Source: Spirochaetia bacterium
GTDB lineage: Bacteria > Spirochaetota > Spirochaetia > UBA9216
Length of the DNA stretch: 64,000 nt
NCBI GenBank assembly: GCA_963675665.1
Contig: OY776510.1
Coordinates: 3,104,001 to 3,168,000 of the forward strand
Direction of reading: 5' to 3'
How positions within the stretch are numbered: the stretch's first letter is position 1; each line of letters begins with the position of its first letter. This document shows positions 1 to 23,566 of the stretch, one piece after another. The position numbers were made by a program, and so were the translations under genes. The notes beneath the pieces are model-generated. The model was not told where the DNA came from. It saw only the letters and a list, made by a program, of their open reading frames with translations, and made no database searches.

Positions 1-318
1 CATGAAAACAGCATAATAATAATTCGTATGCGTATACGGCGGAAAATCCTCGTAAAATTCCACACCCTGTGGAATACGGGCTACCTTGACGGCCTCGGAG
101 AGGTTCTGTTCATTTATAATATTGGTATGTCTGTAAATGATGCAGTTTCCTTCAACATCTGCAGTGTCTTTCCAGCTGATTTTAACACTGTTTTTAAGCG
201 ATTCAATTTTTATCCTGGAGACAAAAGGAGTAAAGATACTGTTGGCCTGCGAAAACAGCATTGATGATACCAGTGAAAAACAAAGAATGATAAAAATAAA
301 AAAAAGAGTTCTCTTCAT
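1..318 (-). CDS. Secreted hypothetical protein, N-terminal part (runs off the window)
   Basis: Minus-strand frame open from ATG at 318 to position 1: MKRTLFFIFIILCFSLVSSMLFSQANSIFTPFVSRIKIESLKNSVKISWKD...YYYAVFM. Signal peptide followed by an FN3-like ISW/YYYAV pattern. Not in the ORF track because it has no stop in the window. Confidence 0.75.
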   Translation of the reverse strand, partial: MKRTLFFIFIILCFSLVSSMLFSQANSIFTPFVSRIKIESLKNSVKISWKDTADVEGNCIIYRHTNIINEQNLSEAVKVARIPQGVEFYEDFPPYTHTNYYYAVFM

Positions 319-390
319 ATCTTATATTATAATCGGCTTAATTAGTTATAAAAACACTAAATTTACATGTTTTTGTAATGCTTTCGGGGT

Positions 391-419
391 TTGACATAAA
401 AAAAATTACTTTCTAAACT
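391..419 (+). promoter_or_regulatory. Sigma70 promoter for the cas2-like/prfB operon
   Basis: TTGACA (391-396), 17 nt, TAAACT (414-419). The ATG at 426 sits at the expected +1. Confidence 0.7.
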
Positions 420-425
420 GTGCAT

Positions 426-698
426 ATGTTTGTAGCAGTTGTTTGCGATATTGCAGATGCCGGTCACAGGGACATGGTTATAGATTATCTGAGGCGGTAC
501 GGTTTTAAGCAGGCCGTTGAAAACACATTTGAATCAACTTCCATCAGTGAGAAAGCCTTAATACGTTTAAAGCGGGATATAGACAAATCGACAGATTTTT
601 ATGATAAAATAAGGTTTTACCAGTATCCTTTTGAAGGAACATTGGTTATTTCGTATCTGAATGAAAAGAAGTGGAAGAAATCAGTCATCAGAACATAA
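426..698 (+). CDS. cas2: Stand-alone Cas2-like (Cas2/VapD ferredoxin-fold) protein
   Basis: MFVAVVCDIAD..HRDMVIDYLRRYGF...NTFE...LKRDIDKSTDFYDKIRFY aligns by eye to the Cas2 pattern (YDI, L..YG, SVFE, D.IRIY). About 90 aa. Confidence 0.7.
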   Translation: MFVAVVCDIADAGHRDMVIDYLRRYGFKQAVENTFESTSISEKALIRLKRDIDKSTDFYDKIRFYQYPFEGTLVISYLNEKKWKKSVIRT

Positions 699-707
699 GG
701 AGAAATT

Positions 708-1812
708 ATGCTGCAGGAAATTGAACAGCGAATAGTTGAAATAGAAAAGAAGATCCTCGAAACATGGAGGCGTCTTTGACCCTGATAAGCTGAAAACCCG
801 AATCACCGAGTATGAAAAAAAGACAGCGGAAGAATCATTCTGGAACGACAGGGAAAATGCTGAAAAGACGCTTGGACAGCTGAAAATATTGAAAGGAAGG
901 CTTGAACCCTGGCAGGAAATAAAGAATGAAATAGAAGATACCAAAGAACTTTATAGCCTTGCTGTAGAAGAAAATGACCAGTCAATCGAGTCAGAGCTTA
1001 CCGAAAGTCTTGATAAAATAGAAAAAGAATTCGAACGGCTGGAGGTTCTTGAACTTTTGGGCAGCAAGTTTGATACAAACAATGCCTTTATTACAATTCA
1101 CTCCGGCGCCGGAGGTACTGAAGCCTGCGATTGGGTGAATATGCTGTACCGCATGTATTCGCGCTGGATAGAGCGTGAAAACTTAAAATTTCAGCTTCTC
1201 GACATGCTTGAAGCCGAAGGCGGAATAAAATCGGTAACAATGCAGGTGAACGGTGAATATGCGCACGGCTATCTGAAGGGGGAATCAGGGGTGCACAGGC
1301 TTGTCAGGATATCACCTTTTGATTCAAGTTCAAGACGTCATACATCATTTGCATCCGTATATGTTTCTCCTGTAATCGAAGATGATATCGAGGTGGATAT
1401 TAGGCCTGAAGATATACGAATAGATACCTACAGGGCTTCCGGGGCAGGCGGGCAGCATGTTAATAAAACCGACTCGGCAGTGCGGATAACACACCTGGCG
1501 ACAGGTCTTGTTGTTCAATGTCAGAATGAACGGAGCCAGCATAAAAATAAGGCAAACGCCATGAAAGTGCTGAAGTCACGATTATATGAATATTACCAGG
1601 CCGAGAAAGAGAAGGAACAGGAGCAACACGCACAGGAAAAAAAAGACATATCCTGGGGCAATCAGATTCGCTCATATGTTTTTCATCCTTACAATATGGT
1701 CAAAGATCATAGAACAAAATGTGAAACAGGAAATATTCAGGCCGTAATGGACGGAGATCTTGAAAAATTTATTGAGGAATTCCTTAAATGGAATCGGACG
1801 GCGGGCAAGTGA
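708..1812 (+). CDS. prfB: Peptide chain release factor 2, with programmed +1 frameshift
   Basis: SD AGGAG then ATG at 708. 23 codons lead to CTT-TGA-C (774-780), and the +1 frame continues into the ORF-track protein. SPF and GGQ motifs present. Confidence 0.97.
766..780 (+). promoter_or_regulatory. RF2 autoregulatory frameshift cassette
   Basis: GGAGG-CGT-CTT-TGA-C: an internal SD 3 nt before the CTT TGA C shift site. Confidence 0.95.
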
Positions 1813-2195
1813 AAGCGACAGGCAGATTTCCGGGGGTATTGATTGTAGATGATCTTCAGTTTATGCGGACGGCTATCAGGGAAATCCTTCAGAATGAAGG
1901 AATCACTGTAGCAGGTGAAGCTGAAAACGGCAGAAAATGTCTGGAATTCTATTACAGACATCCCGTAGAACTTGTATTGCTTGATATCACAATGCCTGTA
2001 ATGAACGGTATTGAAGCGCTCGGAAAACTGAAGAGGATTGATCCGGATGTCAGGGTTGTTATGTGTTCGGCAATGGGGCAGGACAAGTACATAATACGAT
2101 CAATTCAACTCGGAGCTATTGATTTTATTGTTAAACCGTTCAAGGCGGAAAGGATTGTATCGGCAGTAAGAAAGGCAATTAATTTTAATGATTGA
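1809..2195 (+). CDS. Single-domain response regulator (CheY-like)
   Basis: LIVDD, LLDITMPVMNG, MCSA and IVKPF receiver motifs. The GTG start overlaps the prfB stop (alternative start 1788). Confidence 0.9.
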   Translation: MKATGRFPGVLIVDDLQFMRTAIREILQNEGITVAGEAENGRKCLEFYYRHPVELVLLDITMPVMNGIEALGKLKRIDPDVRVVMCSAMGQDKYIIRSIQLGAIDFIVKPFKAERIVSAVRKAINFND

Positions 2196-3627
2196 ATATT
2201 CAAAAAAATTATGTTTATCAATCCTGATTATTTTATTTGCTGCATTACATATAAATGCGGATAATGAAATAAAGGCAACCGCAGCTGTTTGCCGGTTTGA
2301 GGATAAAAGCAGTGAAGAGAGTAATCTGGCATACGGTATAGCGATAAGCTTTTATGAAGCTCTGAAATCTGTTGGGGAACACAGGGTCGGCAACAAGGAA
2401 ATAAAAGCTATACTTGCCAAAAGCAATAAAGAAGAGATAACAAAAAAAACAACCGAGCTTGAAAAGCTGTATGAAGAACGCGACAGTTTGTTGTTCAGTT
2501 ATTCGCCAAATCAGCTTGCCCTGAAGATCGAGCAAAAAGATGAGCAGATAGAAAAAAAGAAAAGTGAGCTGCAGGAATTGAATGATTCTTTATCTGAAAT
2601 TGAAACCAACGTTGATGTTGATTTTTATTCAATAATTCCGGTTGAATTAAAGAAAAATGAGGACAGTTTCATATTTAACATGAATCCGGGGCCTGTTTCG
2701 GAAACAGCTGAAAAAAACGATCTCGATTTTATTGTTTATGGCTCTATAGAGGATTCAGGGCAGTACAGGTTGGTTGAAGTAAGGGTATGGAATAACCTGC
2801 TGAATGAGGATATTGAGGTTTGGCAAACGGCAGTGAGTTCGGATGAAGTCAGCAGTCTGATTGCTCCCGGTATAAAGGCCGTTAAAACAGCTGTCCTCGG
2901 ACGGGACTGGTCAGAGCTTACGGTGAAGGCTCCTGTAAACAGTATGATTTATATCGATGATGTATTTTCAGGAATTGGAAGTGTTAACGCGTTGATACTT
3001 GATCCCGGGGCGCGGACTGTGACTGTAAAGGAGCGAAACAGCGAAACGTTTGAGCAGGTTATAAATCTTGAAAAATATGAGCTGAAAGAAATTAATGTGG
3101 ACCTTGTAAAGATGAAGACACGGACACTGGTAATACAGACTTTCCCGCAGGCTGCAGATATATATATCGATTCTGAATGGAAGGGGACAAGCCCGTTAAA
3201 ATTTGAAGTACCGGGGTTTCCGACTTCAGTCATGATAAAGAAGGACGGTTTTGAACAACAAAATTTCTTTATCAGGGAAGATTCGGAAAGCATGATTGAT
3301 ATTATTTTAAAGCCTGATGTGAGTGAACGAGAGGAATATGTTCCTGATAAACGAAAGAGATTTTACTCAAGTCTTGGAGCAGGTATTTTGTCAATTCCGT
3401 TTACAGCATTGTTTTACAGCATGGTTGAGCAGAGCGGAGAAGCGTATTATCGGGAATACAATACTAACGGACTGAACAATACTGATGAGCTGCAGCGTTT
3501 ACAGAATGCCAATATGGCTCAATACAGTTTCTATCTTATTTCTTTGGGGCTGAATATTTTTCTTTTTACGGATACAATAATACAGGCCGTTGATTATGTC
3601 GGCAGTGTTGAATATTTCAGCGAATAA
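2188..3627 (+). CDS. PEGA-domain membrane/secreted protein
   Basis: Signal peptide, coiled coil, PEGA-like motifs (TFPQAADIYIDSEWKGTSPL) and C-terminal hydrophobic helices. Confidence 0.7.
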   Translation: MIEYSKKLCLSILIILFAALHINADNEIKATAAVCRFEDKSSEESNLAYGIAISFYEALKSVGEHRVGNKEIKAILAKSNKEEITKKTTELEKLYEERDSLLFSYSPNQLALKIEQKDEQIEKKKSELQELNDSLSEIETNVDVDFYSIIPVELKKNEDSFIFNMNPGPVSETAEKNDLDFIVYGSIEDSGQYRLVEVRVWNNLLNEDIEVWQTAVSSDEVSSLIAPGIKAVKTAVLGRDWSELTVKAPVNSMIYIDDVFSGIGSVNALILDPGARTVTVKERNSETFEQVINLEKYELKEINVDLVKMKTRTLVIQTFPQAADIYIDSEWKGTSPLKFEVPGFPTSVMIKKDGFEQQNFFIREDSESMIDIILKPDVSEREEYVPDKRKRFYSSLGAGILSIPFTALFYSMVEQSGEAYYREYNTNGLNNTDELQRLQNANMAQYSFYLISLGLNIFLFTDTIIQAVDYVGSVEYFSE

Positions 3628-3647: not shown

Positions 3648-4517
3648 GTGGCTAAACCAGGAATTGGTGAAAGACTTAAAAATTTATTTACAAAATCCGG
3701 TACCGATGAAGATTTTTATGAAGATTTTGAAGATATGCTTATTGAAGGCGACATCGGAGCTTCAGCTGCAATGGAAATAAGTGATCAGCTTAAAGAGCAT
3801 CTGGGCAGAAAAGCTCCTTCCAACAGGCAGGTCGTAAGTGATGAATTAAAAAAAATAATCGGCGGTATGGTTAAAAACGCGGATCCGGCTGTTGATCCTG
3901 AAAAAACCACAATACTTATGGTTCTCGGAGTCAACGGTGTGGGCAAGACAACTACTATAGCAAAAATTGCCGATTACTACAGAAAAGAATACGGAATTGA
4001 GCCGATTTTAAGCGCTGGAGATACCTTCCGGGCAGCGGCAATCGATCAGCTGAAACTGCATGGAGAGAGGTTGGGGTTGAAGGTAATACACCAGCAGCCC
4101 GGGTCCGATCCTGGAGCTGTGATATACGACAGTATTGAAAGCGCAAAGGCGCATGGTTCCCGGATGATTATTGCAGATACAGCCGGAAGAATGCATAACA
4201 AGGCTAATCTTGTAAAAGAGCTTCAGAAAATTGATAAAATTATAAGTTCAAAAGCTGCAGATGCAGAGTACCGTAAAATTCTGATTATCGATGCAACTAC
4301 CGGGCAAAACGGATTCAGGCAGGCTGAATTATTTAATGAAGCAGTCGGAATAGACCAGATTATTCTGACCAAATACGATTCAAGTGCCAAGGGCGGAATT
4401 GCAGTCTCTATCTGTTCAAAATTAGGTCTTCGGTTCTCGTTTATCGGAACCGGCGAAAAATATTCGGATATCCGGATTTTTGATATTGATGATTATATCG
4501 AAAAATTATTGAGCTGA
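3648..4517 (+). CDS. ftsY: Signal recognition particle receptor FtsY
   Basis: GVNGVGKTTTIAK, DTFRAAA, DTAGR, DATTGQN and TKYDSSAKGG motifs. Confidence 0.96.
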   Translation: MAKPGIGERLKNLFTKSGTDEDFYEDFEDMLIEGDIGASAAMEISDQLKEHLGRKAPSNRQVVSDELKKIIGGMVKNADPAVDPEKTTILMVLGVNGVGKTTTIAKIADYYRKEYGIEPILSAGDTFRAAAIDQLKLHGERLGLKVIHQQPGSDPGAVIYDSIESAKAHGSRMIIADTAGRMHNKANLVKELQKIDKIISSKAADAEYRKILIIDATTGQNGFRQAELFNEAVGIDQIILTKYDSSAKGGIAVSICSKLGLRFSFIGTGEKYSDIRIFDIDDYIEKLLS

Positions 4518-5548
4518 TGAAACGCATTTTAATTACCATTCTTGTATTTTTTTCTTCAGTCTTGATATATTCTGATGAGTATTACAGATCGAATATACTT
4601 GGAATGAAACTGGAGCAGATAGACAACCCGCAGGATATAGTCGACGACTGGCTTCTTACAATAAGTTACAGGAACGGAATAGAGAGCAGAATATTATATA
4701 ATGGTGCGGAGACAGTTTCAGTAATGGAAATTGAGCAAAAGGACGGCTGGGTAATTGAAACAACCAGGAGCGGAGAAAAAACTGAAATAATCACAAGGGA
4801 AAACGGCATTATTATTTCGGAGGAAACCTTTGAAAACGGAGTATTGCCTGAAAAAAATACATATGTATACAAAAATGGAAGACTGCAGTATACAGAGCAT
4901 TATTCAGGCGATGAAAAAACCTATACTGATAAATATAAATATACAAAAGAAGGGCGACTTCTTGATGTTAACAGGGAATACAACAGCAGGGCTGATAATA
5001 TAATTGTGTCTTTTATGTTTAATGACGGAAGAATCGAAAGTAATCTTTATACATCGGGGAAAAGGAACAATTATATAATTTTTGACAAAAACGGTATTGT
5101 TCTGAGCGAAAGTTATGGCGATACCTCGAATGAAACAAGAGAATACGGGACTCTGGAAAACGGACTCAGATTTGAAAAGGTCAGCAACAGTGATAATAAG
5201 GAAATTACTACTTTAATCTTTGACGAAGAAGACCGAATTATTTCAAATGAAGTCAGGTCGGAAAACGGAATTCTCAAAGAAAAAACTGAGTGGTTCTATG
5301 AATCTGACAGCATAAAGAAGATAAAAAAGAAAAAAGAACTTTTACTTGAAGTAATTGATTTCAGCTACGACAGGGACGGGATGTTGATTGAAGAGCGTTA
5401 TACAAGAAACGGAAATATTATGCAGGTCCGGGAATTTGATTCGGAGCTTGATTATACTGAAGAATTATACCGGAACGGATTGCCGGTATTAATAATAACC
5501 TATAAAAACGGTACAAGAATAAAAACAGAACAAATCCGGGACTATTAA
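4517..5548 (+). CDS. Secreted hypothetical protein with beta-hairpin (YD/MORN-like) repeats
   Basis: Signal peptide and recurring Y.NG / YD.DG motifs. Translationally coupled to ftsY. Confidence 0.65.
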   Translation: MKRILITILVFFSSVLIYSDEYYRSNILGMKLEQIDNPQDIVDDWLLTISYRNGIESRILYNGAETVSVMEIEQKDGWVIETTRSGEKTEIITRENGIIISEETFENGVLPEKNTYVYKNGRLQYTEHYSGDEKTYTDKYKYTKEGRLLDVNREYNSRADNIIVSFMFNDGRIESNLYTSGKRNNYIIFDKNGIVLSESYGDTSNETREYGTLENGLRFEKVSNSDNKEITTLIFDEEDRIISNEVRSENGILKEKTEWFYESDSIKKIKKKKELLLEVIDFSYDRDGMLIEERYTRNGNIMQVREFDSELDYTEELYRNGLPVLIITYKNGTRIKTEQIRDY

Positions 5549-6748
5549 ATGTTTAAAGAATGGGTTTTTTTTATTTCATCGCGATATATCAGGGCGGACC
5601 GCAGGGGACGAAAAATATCTCCGGGAATACTCTCTGCTGCCGGAATTGCTGTAGGCGTTATGGCCCTGATATCTGTTATTTCCGTGATGAACGGATTTCA
5701 GATGGGTTTTATTGAAGATATACTTGAAATCTCGTCGTACCATTTGAGAATAGAAAGCAGTGATGAAAAAACAGAATCGGAAATTCGGAATATAAAAGGT
5801 ATCAGAAGCGTAATGTCGTTTTATGAAACCAAGACATTATTAAACAGCCCGTATAATATTGAACCATGTCTTGTCAAGGGAATTCCTGCTCTGGCAGAAA
5901 AGCTGGATCCTGAGTTCTTCAACCAGTTGAATATAGTCAGGGGAAGTTTTGAACCGGAAATATCCGAAAGTGTTGTAATCGGAAGAATACTGGCTCTCAG
6001 GCTGGGAATTGATATAGGTGAGCAGGTTTCGGTAGTTGCTTTGAACGGAGGCACTTTTAACAAATTAAGTCCGGAAACAACAGATTTTACAGTAACCGGT
6101 ATTTTTCAATGCGGCTATACGGATTTCGATTCATCGATAATAATTATGTCTGATTATTCTTTGAAAAAAATAGATGAGGGAGCTGTTCCTGTTCTGGGGG
6201 TTAAACTTGAAAACCGTTTTAATGATGAAAAAACGGCAAAAACAATTATCGAACACACAGGACTTAACAGAGAAAATATTGTTTCATGGAGGAGCTACAA
6301 CAAAGCATTTTTCAGCGCTCTGCGGCTTGAAAAATCCGTGATGACGATAATGCTGGGTTTGATTTTTCTGGTTGTGTCGTTCGGAATATTTAACTCAACA
6401 AGAAGGACAATAGCAGAAAAGCAGGAAGAGGTGGGAATACTCAGAGCAATCGGCTCAACCCCGGTTCAGATCAGACAAATATTCGTAATCGACGGATTAA
6501 TAATAGGTATTTCAGGAGGGCTGGCCGGTACGATTGCAGGCATACTGGTGACCACCAATATTAATAAAATACTGAAAGTGTTGTCTTTGAACTCGGCCTC
6601 ATTCCTTATAAATGTGCCGGTACGAATTATGACCGGAGAAGTGCTTTTTATTCTTCTTTTTGCAGTGATTTTCTGTGTTGTTTCGGCCTATGCTGCATCT
6701 GCGAAAGTGTCAAATATAACACCGCAGGAAGTTTTGCGATACGAATAA
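5549..6748 (+). CDS. Lipoprotein-releasing ABC transporter permease (LolC/E family)
   Basis: GIAVGVMALISVISVMNGF and EVGILRAIG motifs, MacB/FtsX layout, adjacent to lolD. Confidence 0.9.
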   Translation: MFKEWVFFISSRYIRADRRGRKISPGILSAAGIAVGVMALISVISVMNGFQMGFIEDILEISSYHLRIESSDEKTESEIRNIKGIRSVMSFYETKTLLNSPYNIEPCLVKGIPALAEKLDPEFFNQLNIVRGSFEPEISESVVIGRILALRLGIDIGEQVSVVALNGGTFNKLSPETTDFTVTGIFQCGYTDFDSSIIIMSDYSLKKIDEGAVPVLGVKLENRFNDEKTAKTIIEHTGLNRENIVSWRSYNKAFFSALRLEKSVMTIMLGLIFLVVSFGIFNSTRRTIAEKQEEVGILRAIGSTPVQIRQIFVIDGLIIGISGGLAGTIAGILVTTNINKILKVLSLNSASFLINVPVRIMTGEVLFILLFAVIFCVVSAYAASAKVSNITPQEVLRYE

Positions 6749-20936: not shown

Positions 20937-23566
20937 TATGGTTTTAACCCCAGTTCATCAAATAATTTTTTATAGACATCAAAATGTTCAGATTTGGCAA
21001 ATTCTTCGATTTTATCGTCAGGAAGTGATTCAAGGAGGTGGTCCATATATGACAAAACGGACTTAATCTCGGTTTTAAGATCATCAGGTAATGTGGATAA
21101 TGCGTCTTCTTCAGAATCCGGGACATCAACTGAATCAGTTTCCACTTCTTCTTCATCTTCAATAGATATCATTTCACCATCAAGCTCAATTTCATTATTT
21201 GGTGTTTCAATAATATCCGTTCCGTCGTCTTCAATATTCTTTAAATCATCAAAAGCGGGGTCTGAAAGATCCAGTTCATCATCAAAATCAGGATTTTCGA
21301 CCGAGATTCCTTCTTCTTCAACCGCAATATCATCAAGAGAAGATGCGTCGAAACTAATTTCTTCATCAAGAGACAGGTCATCTATATTTTCATCGTCAAA
21401 TGAAGGGGGTGCAAGAGTTTCCCCGCCTAATGAGGGTATTTCCCCGGAGTAAGCATCTGATTCAAGGTCTAATTCCTCAATATCGTTGATTTCATCGGAC
21501 ATCTCAGGTTCTTCATCAAGAGACGGGATATCTTCAAGCTCAAGTTCTTCATCGATATCTATATCCTCATCAAGTTCAAGTTCTTCATCAAGTTCAAAGC
21601 TGATTTCATCATCTGTGCTTTGCGTATCATCATCAATAGAAATATCATCTTCGAGAGTTATTTCATCGGATATATCAGGTCCTTCTTCAAGAGACGGGAT
21701 ATCTTCAAGATTAAGTTCCTCATCTATGTCGATTTCATCCTCAAGTTCAAGTTCCTCTTCGAGGTCAATGTCCAATTCATCTTCTACACCTGAAGTATCA
21801 TTTTCAGATACAACCTCCGCAGAAATTTCCTCTTCAAGGGTGATTTCATCGGATATCTCAGGTTCTTCATCAAAAGTGGAGATATCTTCAAGATCAAGTT
21901 CCTCGTCTATGTCGATTTCATCCTCAAGTTCAAGTTCTTCTTCAAGGTTTATGTCAAGATCATCATCTGTAAATGCAACATCATCCTCAGATTCATCAAA
22001 TGAAATTTCTTCGATATCGCCGGATTCATCATCAAGGGAAATTTCGTCTTCAAGTGTTATTTCATCGGAGATTTCAGGTTCTTCATCAAGAGACGGGATA
22101 TCTTCAAGATTAAGTTCCTCATCTATGTCGATTTCATCATCAAGTTCAAGTTCTTCTTCCAGATTGATGTCAAGATCATCATCAGTAAATGCAACATCAT
22201 CCTCAGATTCATCAATTGAAATTTCTTCGATATCGCCGGATTCATCATCAAGAGAAATCTCGTCTTCAAGGGTTATTTCATCGGATATCTCAGGTTCTAC
22301 ATCAAGGTCAAGATCGCTATCCATGTCAGGAACATCATCTGAAGGAGTTTCTTCGATTAATGAAAGGTCTGAATCCGGCTCTTCGTCAAATGTAATATCA
22401 TCTTCAGTAATTATTTCATCTTCGATTGAAGCAATTTCATCAGCGGGTTCATCTATGCCGACTTCTTCATCAAAACTGATATCATCAAAGGATGAAAGAT
22501 CGGTATCACTATCAGAAGAATCCTCATCTTCGGCAATATCATCTTCAATAAAAGATAATTCTTCCTCTAAAGGTGTTTCTTCGGTTTCAGTCTGGTTAAA
22601 TCCGGACAAGAGTTCTTCAGTATCGTTCTGGTTAAAATCATCGCTTTCAATATTGTCGTCGTTTAAGAGTGCTTCGACATCAGTATCAGTGATGTCCTCG
22701 GAAGCGAAGGGGGCTTCCGGTTCAGCTTCGTCAAAATCAACTTCAAAATTATTGAGAATATCTTCTTCAGGAGCTTCGGATACTGTTCCGCTTTCTTCAG
22801 TTATATCAGCAGTATTAAGAATATTATCAAGCTCATCTCCGGTGAGTGCAATAGTTTCATCTTCATCGTCTTCAAAAAAACCTGTCAGGTCTTCACCGGC
22901 AGGTTCCTGTGGTGTTCTGTCTGTTGTTTTAAGAGAAGATAATTCATTTTTAAGTTCAGAAAGATCCTGTTTTATAGAAAGAAGTTCTTCTTCGATTTTC
23001 AGGAGAATGGAACGGGAAGAACCCTGTTCAATATCTTCGGAAGAAATAGTTTCGGATAAATTATCGATACTGTCAGTTACACTGGATTCAACTTCAGAAA
23101 GATCTGCTTCAAGAGCATCAAGATCAGAAAACTCATCTGAAGGTTTAGAAAGAAATTCAGTATCTTCATCAGAGATGTCGTCAAAGGAATCTTCAAAAGA
23201 ATTTTCATCGATTATGTCATTTTCTGTTTCGGCTTCAGGAAGGGTCATGTCGCTTATGTCATCAAAGGAAATATCATCATCGGATGATTCATCGATTTCT
23301 GTTTCAGAAATAGTATCTTCAAGCGAACCAAGCAATTCCTCTTCTTCGTCTGTAAGAAGCTCCTCAGTGTCTTCGTCTTCGGAATTGAGATCTTCAAGAA
23401 TGAAATCGGCTGAGTCGGCAGATTCAGCTTCTTCAACGTCTTCAGGTCCTGTTTTAACCCAAACGCCGTATTTTTCAAGATCGTTATCAGTATTTTTGAT
23501 ATCAGAAGAACCTATATTGTCATCCAGTTCATCAATAGAAAGATCAATATCATCAAAATCGGACAT
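20936..23566 (-). CDS. Very acidic 876-aa low-complexity protein with short ordered islands
   Basis: D/E-dominated. Islands are YGVWVK, a coiled coil ([15 protein letters not shown]), TIALTGDELDNIL and a C-terminal EIKSVLSYMDHLLESLP...YKKLFDELG. SD AGGAG present. Confidence 0.88.
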   Translation of the reverse strand: MSDFDDIDLSIDELDDNIGSSDIKNTDNDLEKYGVWVKTGPEDVEEAESADSADFILEDLNSEDEDTEELLTDEEEELLGSLEDTISETEIDESSDDDISFDDISDMTLPEAETENDIIDENSFEDSFDDISDEDTEFLSKPSDEFSDLDALEADLSEVESSVTDSIDNLSETISSEDIEQGSSRSILLKIEEELLSIKQDLSELKNELSSLKTTDRTPQEPAGEDLTGFFEDDEDETIALTGDELDNILNTADITEESGTVSEAPEEDILNNFEVDFDEAEPEAPFASEDITDTDVEALLNDDNIESDDFNQNDTEELLSGFNQTETEETPLEEELSFIEDDIAEDEDSSDSDTDLSSFDDISFDEEVGIDEPADEIASIEDEIITEDDITFDEEPDSDLSLIEETPSDDVPDMDSDLDLDVEPEISDEITLEDEISLDDESGDIEEISIDESEDDVAFTDDDLDINLEEELELDDEIDIDEELNLEDIPSLDEEPEISDEITLEDEISLDDESGDIEEISFDESEDDVAFTDDDLDINLEEELELEDEIDIDEELDLEDISTFDEEPEISDEITLEEEISAEVVSENDTSGVEDELDIDLEEELELEDEIDIDEELNLEDIPSLEEGPDISDEITLEDDISIDDDTQSTDDEISFELDEELELDEDIDIDEELELEDIPSLDEEPEMSDEINDIEELDLESDAYSGEIPSLGGETLAPPSFDDENIDDLSLDEEISFDASSLDDIAVEEEGISVENPDFDDELDLSDPAFDDLKNIEDDGTDIIETPNNEIELDGEMISIEDEEEVETDSVDVPDSEEDALSTLPDDLKTEIKSVLSYMDHLLESLPDDKIEEFAKSEHFDVYKKLFDELGLKP
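21490..22300 (-). repeat. Intragenic tandem repeats with periods 216, 216, 183 and 171 bp
   Basis: The anchor CAGGT (PEISDEI motif) recurs at 22291, 22075, 21859, 21676 and 21505. Confidence 0.9.

Follow-up and report, generated by a model that had tools for sequence, protein, structure and literature searches.

Whether Cas2 does more than hold two Cas1 dimers together, including any use of its nuclease site, has been debated for over a decade, and a ribosome-linked RNase activity has long been proposed as its ancestral function. Here we describe a Cas2-like gene near the start of a 64,000-nt stretch of a Spirochaetia bacterium (contig OY776510.1, positions 3,104,001 to 3,168,000 of the forward strand; the whole stretch is referred to as the window), where a 90-aa open reading frame (ORF) stands immediately before prfB, the gene for release factor RF2. 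Canonical Cas2 (PF09827; for example, Thermus thermophilus TT1823, 1zpw, and Escherichia coli Cas2 in the Cas1-Cas2 complex, 4qdl) belongs to CRISPR loci, and three described groups carry a related fold outside them. VapD (H. influenzae 6zi0; C. jejuni VapD-VapW 9kan) has the ferredoxin-like Cas2/VapD fold. Solo Cas2 homologs of mobile elements, as described by Makarova et al. 2012 (PMC3506569), lie beside resolvases or relaxases and are proposed addiction toxins. Burkholderia pseudomallei BPSL1038 is assigned, in its report (PMC10491678), to a 'Cas2/VapD nuclease sub-family' with a D(x20)SST motif and metal-independent activity.

We consider it likely that the window gene represents a real subfamily of the Cas2 superfamily that is independent of CRISPR and forms the fixed first cistron of the prfB operon in class Spirochaetia. 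In fold, strand order and length (~90 aa) the family agrees with canonical Cas2, as it does in having an acidic residue where strand 1 ends, the G-F/L...F/W-E motif, and a D-x-x-R-x-Y segment ahead of strand 4. Unlike canonical Cas2, which scores 65-99 Pfam bits, the spirochaete proteins score 0-30 bits, have no adjoining cas1 or array, often occur in genomes where Cas1 was not found, are inherited vertically with a housekeeping operon, and add invariant K49, D53 and W83 along with a conserved C-terminal hairpin. The family descends from Cas2, yet falls outside the contextual definition by association with cas1 and CRISPR. It resembles VapD in fold and in lying outside CRISPR loci; unlike VapD, it sits in a housekeeping rather than a mobile context, has no antitoxin neighbour of the VapX or VapW type, matches VapD structures less well than Cas2 structures, and retrieves no VapD family from Pfam at expect values (E) up to 10. 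Like BPSL1038 as described in PMC10491678, the family is a lineage-restricted, CRISPR-independent Cas2-like fold; unlike BPSL1038 as described there, it lacks the SST motif, keeps the canonical Cas2 motifs, and belongs to another phylum and another genomic context. With the solo homologs of PMC3506569 it shares the lack of Cas1, but differs by its place in a translation-factor operon and its vertical inheritance. Neither VapD nor the solo Cas2 homologs nor BPSL1038 heads a translation-factor operon as a gene passed on by vertical descent. Our literature search found no report on this family, and the papers listed for Cas2 of Treponema denticola treat, as far as seen, its CRISPR Cas2; subscription journals and the supplements of CRISPR censuses, which may list solo cas2 genes, lay outside that search.

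The initial annotation had recognized a 90-aa Cas2-like ORF from its letters, and this assignment holds: residues 1-66 match PF09827 (CRISPR_Cas2) at 29.1 bits (E 1.2e-6), above the curated cut-off of 23.8 bits, and residues 7-9 read C-D-I, the pattern with the first-strand Asp described there. NCBIfam gave no meaningful match, and the PADLOC matches were weak and exclusively to Cas2 models. Among solved structures, a profile built from the family matches the Cas2 proteins 3exc, at E 0.004, and 1zpw, at E 0.021, and D8 aligns to the first-strand Asp (YD[VI]) of both. The AlphaFold2 model made from the alignment reaches a predicted local distance difference test score of 94.4 and a predicted template modelling (TM) score of 0.83, with predicted strands at residues 2-8, 28-31, 34-37, 61-69, 72-79 and 82-88 and helices at 12-24 and 42-55. 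In the VIA wide structure search, which covers ~48,000 PDB representatives and is independent of Foldseek, ranks 1-13 were all Cas2 chains (Z 8.4-11.1), among them 1zpw (Z 11.1, 70 residues aligned) and E. coli Cas2 4qdl_E (Z 10.4, 82 residues); after Cas2 came unrelated ferredoxin-like folds with Z of at most 7.5, and VapD appeared at ranks 31-32 (Z 6.5). The Foldseek matches listed were nearly all Cas2, with a best E of 1.8e-3 (none reached 0.001) and TM scores of 0.57-0.70 for the compact ones. Look-alikes in the ESM Atlas were spirochaete 'putative Cas2' clusters, 40-49% of whose members pass Pfam. Pfam, the family profile, Foldseek and VIA wide all favour Cas2 over VapD, the two families against which the initial annotation had proposed such comparisons.

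The Cas2 hallmarks are kept in the window protein, including the acidic D8, the G-F/L...F/W-E(-S) motif (E36), and D57/D60-x-x-R63-x-Y65. Alignment of 27 homologs with identity down to 43% left 13 invariant columns, and across 34 sequences that include treponemes we found M1, F2, E36, K49, D53, D57, P68 and W83 invariant, and position 8, where the first strand ends, is Asp or Glu in 33 of the 34. The basic C-terminal hairpin, K-K-W-K/R, is conserved and carries the invariant W83. Among seven close relatives, synonymous sites are saturated (proportion of synonymous differences, pS, 0.65-0.93) and the proportion of nonsynonymous differences (pN) is 0.06-0.25; the ratio of nonsynonymous to synonymous rates (dN/dS) is 0.035-0.081 in the seven of 21 pairs for which dS could be computed, the remaining 14 being saturated. 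Hence, given 13 invariant columns and a low pN despite saturated synonymous sites, this is not a chance ORF. The window protein genuinely belongs to the Cas2 superfamily and is under strong constraint.

The gene keeps its neighbour. We found prfB directly downstream on the same strand in all 55 Spirochaetia loci examined, irrespective of Cas1, so that the pairing which the initial annotation proposed to trace across Spirochaetota extends through this class and covers at least 16 families. These loci comprise 20 from the search of relatives, 29 from the phylum-wide search and 6 judged by coordinates (the prfB RF-1 domain 0.7-1 kb downstream on the same strand), and the count leaves out 12 further same-class matches of the phylum-wide search. 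In the window, the TAA stop (696-698) directly abuts GGAG (699-702), the fusion of stop codon and prfB Shine-Dalgarno motif noted earlier. CTTTGA lies downstream of the Cas2-like gene in 20/20 loci checked; the CTT TGA C +1 frameshift site of prfB is the established site of RF2 autoregulation. On the other side, the divergent 414-aa gene is recognizable upstream in 38 of 49 Spirochaetia loci; hence, the conserved block is wider than the pair. Across 34 genomes, pairwise divergence runs in parallel for the Cas2-like protein and the adjacent RF2 (Pearson 0.69; none of 2000 Mantel permutations reaches 0.69), which fits vertical co-inheritance and is no test of co-evolution, since related genomes are not independent.

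The genome does contain a complete CRISPR-Cas locus, in C1:2300001-2316000 (L144), upstream of the window. Its cas1 encodes 343 aa (L144 8054-9085), its cas2 encodes 96 aa (L144 9089-9379) and is canonical (99 Pfam bits), and in its array the 32-nt repeat GTCGCTCCCTTCGCGGGAGCGTGGATTGAAAC occurs at least 81 times, separated by spacers of ~34 nt. We take this repeat to resemble subtype I-C. Two adjacent spacers in the array are identical (L144 10085-10216). The only Cas1 match of the genome, C1:2308075-2308944, lies ~795 kb from the window, which starts at C1:3104001. The window itself has no CRISPR-like array, its only periodic repeats being the probable coding repeat at 21461-22340. The earlier statement that the window lacks cas1 and an array therefore stands, and the label 'orphan' is right for the window but not for the genome; because a full cas1-cas2-CRISPR locus exists elsewhere, the gene is an orphan locally only.

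Carriage of the Cas2-like gene does not follow Cas1. Among 41 relatives, we found both in 8 genomes, the Cas2-like gene only in 18, Cas1 only in 5 and neither in 10, so that Cas1 occurs in 31% of genomes with the Cas2-like gene vs 33% of those without it. Cas1 was not found in 18 of the 26 carriers, which for draft genomes is not proof of absence; nine of these 18 are at least 96% complete, and some are 98-99% complete in 4-10 contigs. No cas1 or CRISPR array adjoins the Cas2-like gene in any of the 55 Spirochaetia loci.

The family also separates from CRISPR-linked Cas2. Of 1.84 billion cluster representatives searched with the family profile, 63 reach E 1e-3 and 32 reach 1e-10, and seven matches in the tail (P0086, P0088, P0092, P0093, P0095-P0097) are canonical Cas2s with 65-93 Pfam bits. 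Scores across 401 genomes sampled from the phylum fall into two groups, 56 of 78 bits or more and seven of 30 bits or less, with a gap between them. A maximum-likelihood tree places 44 family members apart from the 8 closest canonical Cas2s (support 100/99), rather than grouping them with CRISPR-linked Cas2; with 52 rows and 90 columns, the inner forks of this tree are poorly resolved. The window protein is 27% identical over 71 aa to the CRISPR Cas2 of its own genome. The 26 carriers among the 41 relatives include 10/10 of the source genome's family plus many other families of the class, most genomes having a single strong copy, and three large families of the phylum sample had no match (0/75, 0/38 and 0/17). 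Named GTDB genomes yielded 285 confirmed relatives, and almost all of the best 80 carry a spirochaete label, among them Candidatus Thalassospirochaeta sargassi (87% identity) and Oceanispirochaeta (~54%). The family is a distinct, spirochaete-restricted subfamily with no remaining CRISPR link. Hence, based on fold, prfB synteny, independence from Cas1 and separation in the tree, the description of the gene as a domesticated non-CRISPR Cas2 stands.

The gene is transcribed from a conserved sigma-70-type promoter. The consensus promoter reported in the initial annotation, TTGACA-17 nt-TAAACT, matches 10 of 12 consensus positions. This match alone is weak evidence, because the scan found 5 promoter-like sites where 5.1 are expected by chance; its weight comes from conservation, with 47 of 49 loci of related Spirochaetia matching at 9/12 or more. 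In 45 of the 49, the distance from the end of the -10 box to the ATG is 5-10 nt (6 nt in 23 loci, 7 in 9, 5 in 6, 9 in 4, 8 in 2 and 10 in 1), and no Shine-Dalgarno motif precedes the ATG in any of the 49 or in the window gene. Hence, with the -10 box 6 nt before the ATG and no Shine-Dalgarno motif, a leaderless first cistron is predicted. Leaderless mRNAs are reported for Borrelia (PMC5314773).

Transcription was followed in an ortholog. Locus L052 encodes a protein identical letter for letter to Treponema denticola entry AAS12560.1 (Q73L19_TREDE), as L049 does for a T. succinifaciens database entry, and three raw stranded runs (X20-X22) with a matching species label were mapped on L052:1250-3100. 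We found zero depth on either strand in the promoter region (L052 1436-1497), plus-strand depth of 52/16/21 in the bin with the ATG (position 1501), ~500/170/210 within the gene, and 480-520/207-227/220-242 from the intergenic region on into prfB. Reads of the divergent gene upstream fell on the opposite strand, an internal check of strandedness. The level of the Cas2-like transcript was similar to or above that of prfB. Hence, the L052 ortholog is expressed and co-transcribed with prfB, with a 5' untranslated region of zero to few nt, which accords with the geometry of the promoter.

Cas2 thus seems to have been recruited to a housekeeping job. From the Cas2 hallmarks, the invariant E36, K49, D53 and D57, and the basic W83 hairpin, we tentatively suggest a small metal-dependent nucleic-acid-binding protein or endonuclease, which would probably be dimeric. 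Its substrate would most likely be RNA, which is more plausible than DNA because of the prfB operon context; the role in RNA or translation suggested in the initial annotation was likewise drawn from that context. Production of the protein is coupled to RF2 production through the shared transcript and through the stop codon fused to the prfB ribosome-binding site. The hairpin presumably cannot serve Cas1 contact in genomes that lack Cas1. We hold it to be unlikely that the fold was recruited specifically to translation termination or ribosome quality control in Spirochaetia, acting with RF2 or on the mRNA or ribosome substrates of RF2; such a protein might, for example, cut or bind mRNA on stalled ribosomes and so enable release by RF2. 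A complex prediction of RF2 (residues 26 to the end) with the Cas2-like protein, run without controls, gave interaction prediction scores from aligned errors (ipSAE) of 0.00 and 0.00, which counts neither for nor against binding.

Several observations weigh against the account given so far. Pfam support is marginal: 4 of 9 scanned family members exceed the cut-off, with 24-29 bits, and no Pfam match at E 0.01 was obtained for the remaining 5, one of which is the T. denticola-type protein. One family member has Gly at position 8; hence, there is no strict need for the acidic residue. Leaderless starts are frequent in this genome: when strong -35/-10 pairs with an ATG behind them that begins a frame of at least 80 codons were counted, spacings of 6 and 7 nt gave 94 and 43 candidate genes (background 5-32 per spacing), and we rejected the leaderless start as a special trait of the Cas2-like gene, as it is a genome-wide habit. 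The RNA data are from an ortholog rather than the source organism, and ordinary RNA sequencing is not nucleotide-exact for a 5' end. No biochemical or genetic data on any family member appeared in the literature searched.

Two further points against it concern the link to prfB. Other classes of the phylum gave 14 strong matches, and in the 10 loci studied none adjoins prfB (none within 2 kb). In addition, the prfB frameshift site is retained in 5/5 Spirochaetia genomes checked that are without the Cas2-like gene. The prfB link may therefore carry no functional meaning, given unlinked orthologs elsewhere and a frameshift site kept without the gene. The 10 out-of-class orthologs form one clade (99/100), and each has its own GGAG-type ribosome-binding site. 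No cas gene was found among 12 neighbour ORFs scanned in 6 of the 10 loci, and the 414-aa divergent gene of the window has no match in the 10. A shared neighbour was rejected, as a divergent TPR protein recurs in 3/10 loci and the others are unrelated (GGDEF, oligopeptidase F, a Mur-ligase-like gene, DUF3047, or no Pfam family). Hence, the Cas2-like gene predates its prfB link, which became fixed in class Spirochaetia or close to its base.

The position before prfB can be explained in other ways. ArfA- and BrfA-type factors are small proteins that bind RF2 and the empty mRNA channel of stalled ribosomes, and by a similar logic the Cas2 fold could have been turned into an adaptor that binds a protein or the ribosome and cooperates with RF2, its nuclease chemistry irrelevant, either recruiting or tuning RF2 on stalled or terminating ribosomes or acting on the prfB frameshift. 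The unbroken pairing with prfB, the stop codon fused to the prfB Shine-Dalgarno motif, co-transcription in the ortholog, the conserved basic hairpin with its invariant W83, and the parallel divergence of the two proteins all agree with such an adaptor. We nevertheless give it little likelihood: the out-of-class orthologs stand away from prfB, the frameshift site persists without the gene, the distribution is not complementary to that of an ArfB-like rescue factor, and the invariant E36, D53 and D57 would resemble a catalytic or metal site more than an adaptor surface. The same location, with a stop overlapping the prfB Shine-Dalgarno motif of a probably leaderless first cistron, could instead mark a regulatory upstream ORF whose translation, rather than product, matters for prfB expression. 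This explanation is extremely improbable, being largely refuted by conservation at the protein level: the 90-aa domain folds confidently, eight residues are invariant across 34 sequences with dN/dS of ~0.05, all 10 orthologs away from prfB have their own Shine-Dalgarno motif, and the stop varies between TAA, TAG and TGA.

If prfB were a neighbour by chance, the protein could belong to an addiction or stress module as a toxin or mRNA interferase of the VapD kind; the fold is common to Cas2 and VapD, and PMC3506569 proposes toxin-like RNases among the non-CRISPR Cas2 homologs of mobile elements. We regard this as very improbable, since the neighbours are prfB and the divergent gene for a 414-aa secreted protein rather than an antitoxin partner, no small partner ORF is conserved across loci, most genomes have a single strong copy, descent appears vertical under strong purifying selection, RNA of the ortholog in culture is as high as that of prfB, and both sequence and structure matches favour Cas2. 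A spare adaptation Cas2, serving spacer acquisition in trans with a Cas1 encoded elsewhere, would accord with the Cas1 and large array of the source genome and with the retained Cas2 motifs, but is highly improbable when carriers of 98-99% completeness have no detected Cas1, the CRISPR locus has its own Cas2, the tree separates the family from canonical Cas2, and none of the 12 out-of-class neighbours scanned is a cas gene. A domesticated, CRISPR-independent Cas2 subfamily at the head of the prfB operon remains our preferred reading.

Three narrower proposals on the link to translation were also discarded. Dependence of the prfB frameshift on the Cas2-like gene was rejected, as CTTTGA and an upstream GGAGG-like motif occur in the 5/5 genomes without the gene; an RF2-specific stop on the Cas2-like gene was rejected because of the variable stops; and replacement of an ArfB-type factor was rejected because, among the 41 genomes, 21 have both genes, 5 the Cas2-like gene only, 4 ArfB only and 11 neither. 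Both genes tend to be missing from small genomes. Short ArfB-like ORFs occur in 25 of the 41 relatives, mostly in genomes carrying the Cas2-like gene, and the source genome has a third RF-1-domain ORF, ArfB-like, at C1:4203902-4204252 (146-aa frame, 68.7 bits). One Spirochaetia genome without the Cas2-like gene, G014 (L146), has a second match to the RF2 query at 41% identity, which is probably prfA.

The spirochaete family offers a natural experiment in which Cas2 persists without Cas1 across a bacterial class, under purifying selection and with its putative active-site residues intact. If recruitment to termination or quality control were true, it would be the first housekeeping role for Cas2 and a living example of the ribosome-linked RNase activity proposed as ancestral. 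Since orthologs occur in cultivable species (the T. denticola and T. succinifaciens entries), function is directly testable. Databases name the family genes 'CRISPR-associated protein Cas2' or 'hypothetical protein'; CRISPR surveys will therefore take them for orphan cas2 loci of spirochaetes, which is misleading.

Table 1. Features of the prfB operon and its surroundings (window coordinates unless marked C1)
Feature	Coordinates	Strand	Evidence or remark
Divergent 414-aa gene, window part	1..318	-	Full gene C1:3103074-3104318; N-terminal hydrophobic signal-like segment
-35 hexamer TTGACA of operon promoter	391..396	+	Promoter scan; 17-nt spacer to -10
-10 hexamer TAAACT	414..419	+	Ends 6 nt before ATG of Cas2-like gene
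Cas2-like gene, 90 aa (ATG 426, TAA 696-698)	426..698	+	Pfam, AlphaFold2 model, fold searches, alignments
Shine-Dalgarno AAGGAG of prfB	697..702	+	Overlaps TAA stop of Cas2-like gene; sequence read directly
prfB frame 0: ATG 708-710, 23 sense codons, then in-frame TGA 777-779	708..779	+	Sequence
prfB programmed +1 frameshift site: GGAGG 766-770, CGT, CTT 774-776, TGA 777-779, C	766..780	+	
prfB +1 frame, RF2 body, PCRF and RF-1 domains	778..1812	+	PF03462 186 bits, PF00472 161 bits
Receiver-domain (CheY-like) gene, next in operon	1788..2195	+	PF00072 107.8 bits
PEGA-domain protein gene	2188..3627	+	Downstream, operon strand
ftsY	3648..4517	+	Downstream, operon strand
343-aa gene without family assignment	4517..5548	+	Downstream, operon strand
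LolC/E-type permease gene	5549..6748	+	Downstream, operon strand

The genes downstream of prfB through the LolC/E-type permease gene lie on one strand with overlapping or abutting ends. The 414-aa divergent protein is predicted to be secreted and has no Pfam family, and an Rfam scan of window positions 1-3000 gave no match. The stand-alone receiver-domain gene overlaps the final 25 nt of prfB; at the T. denticola-type locus L052, a 106-aa ORF without a Pfam match (L052 2919-3239) likewise overlaps prfB. Farther along the window, at 21461-22340, tandem repeats recur imperfectly at spacings that are multiples of 18 nt, including 13 copies of a 40-nt unit rich in TTCAAG/TTCATC; rather than a CRISPR array, they most likely form an acidic repeat in coding sequence.

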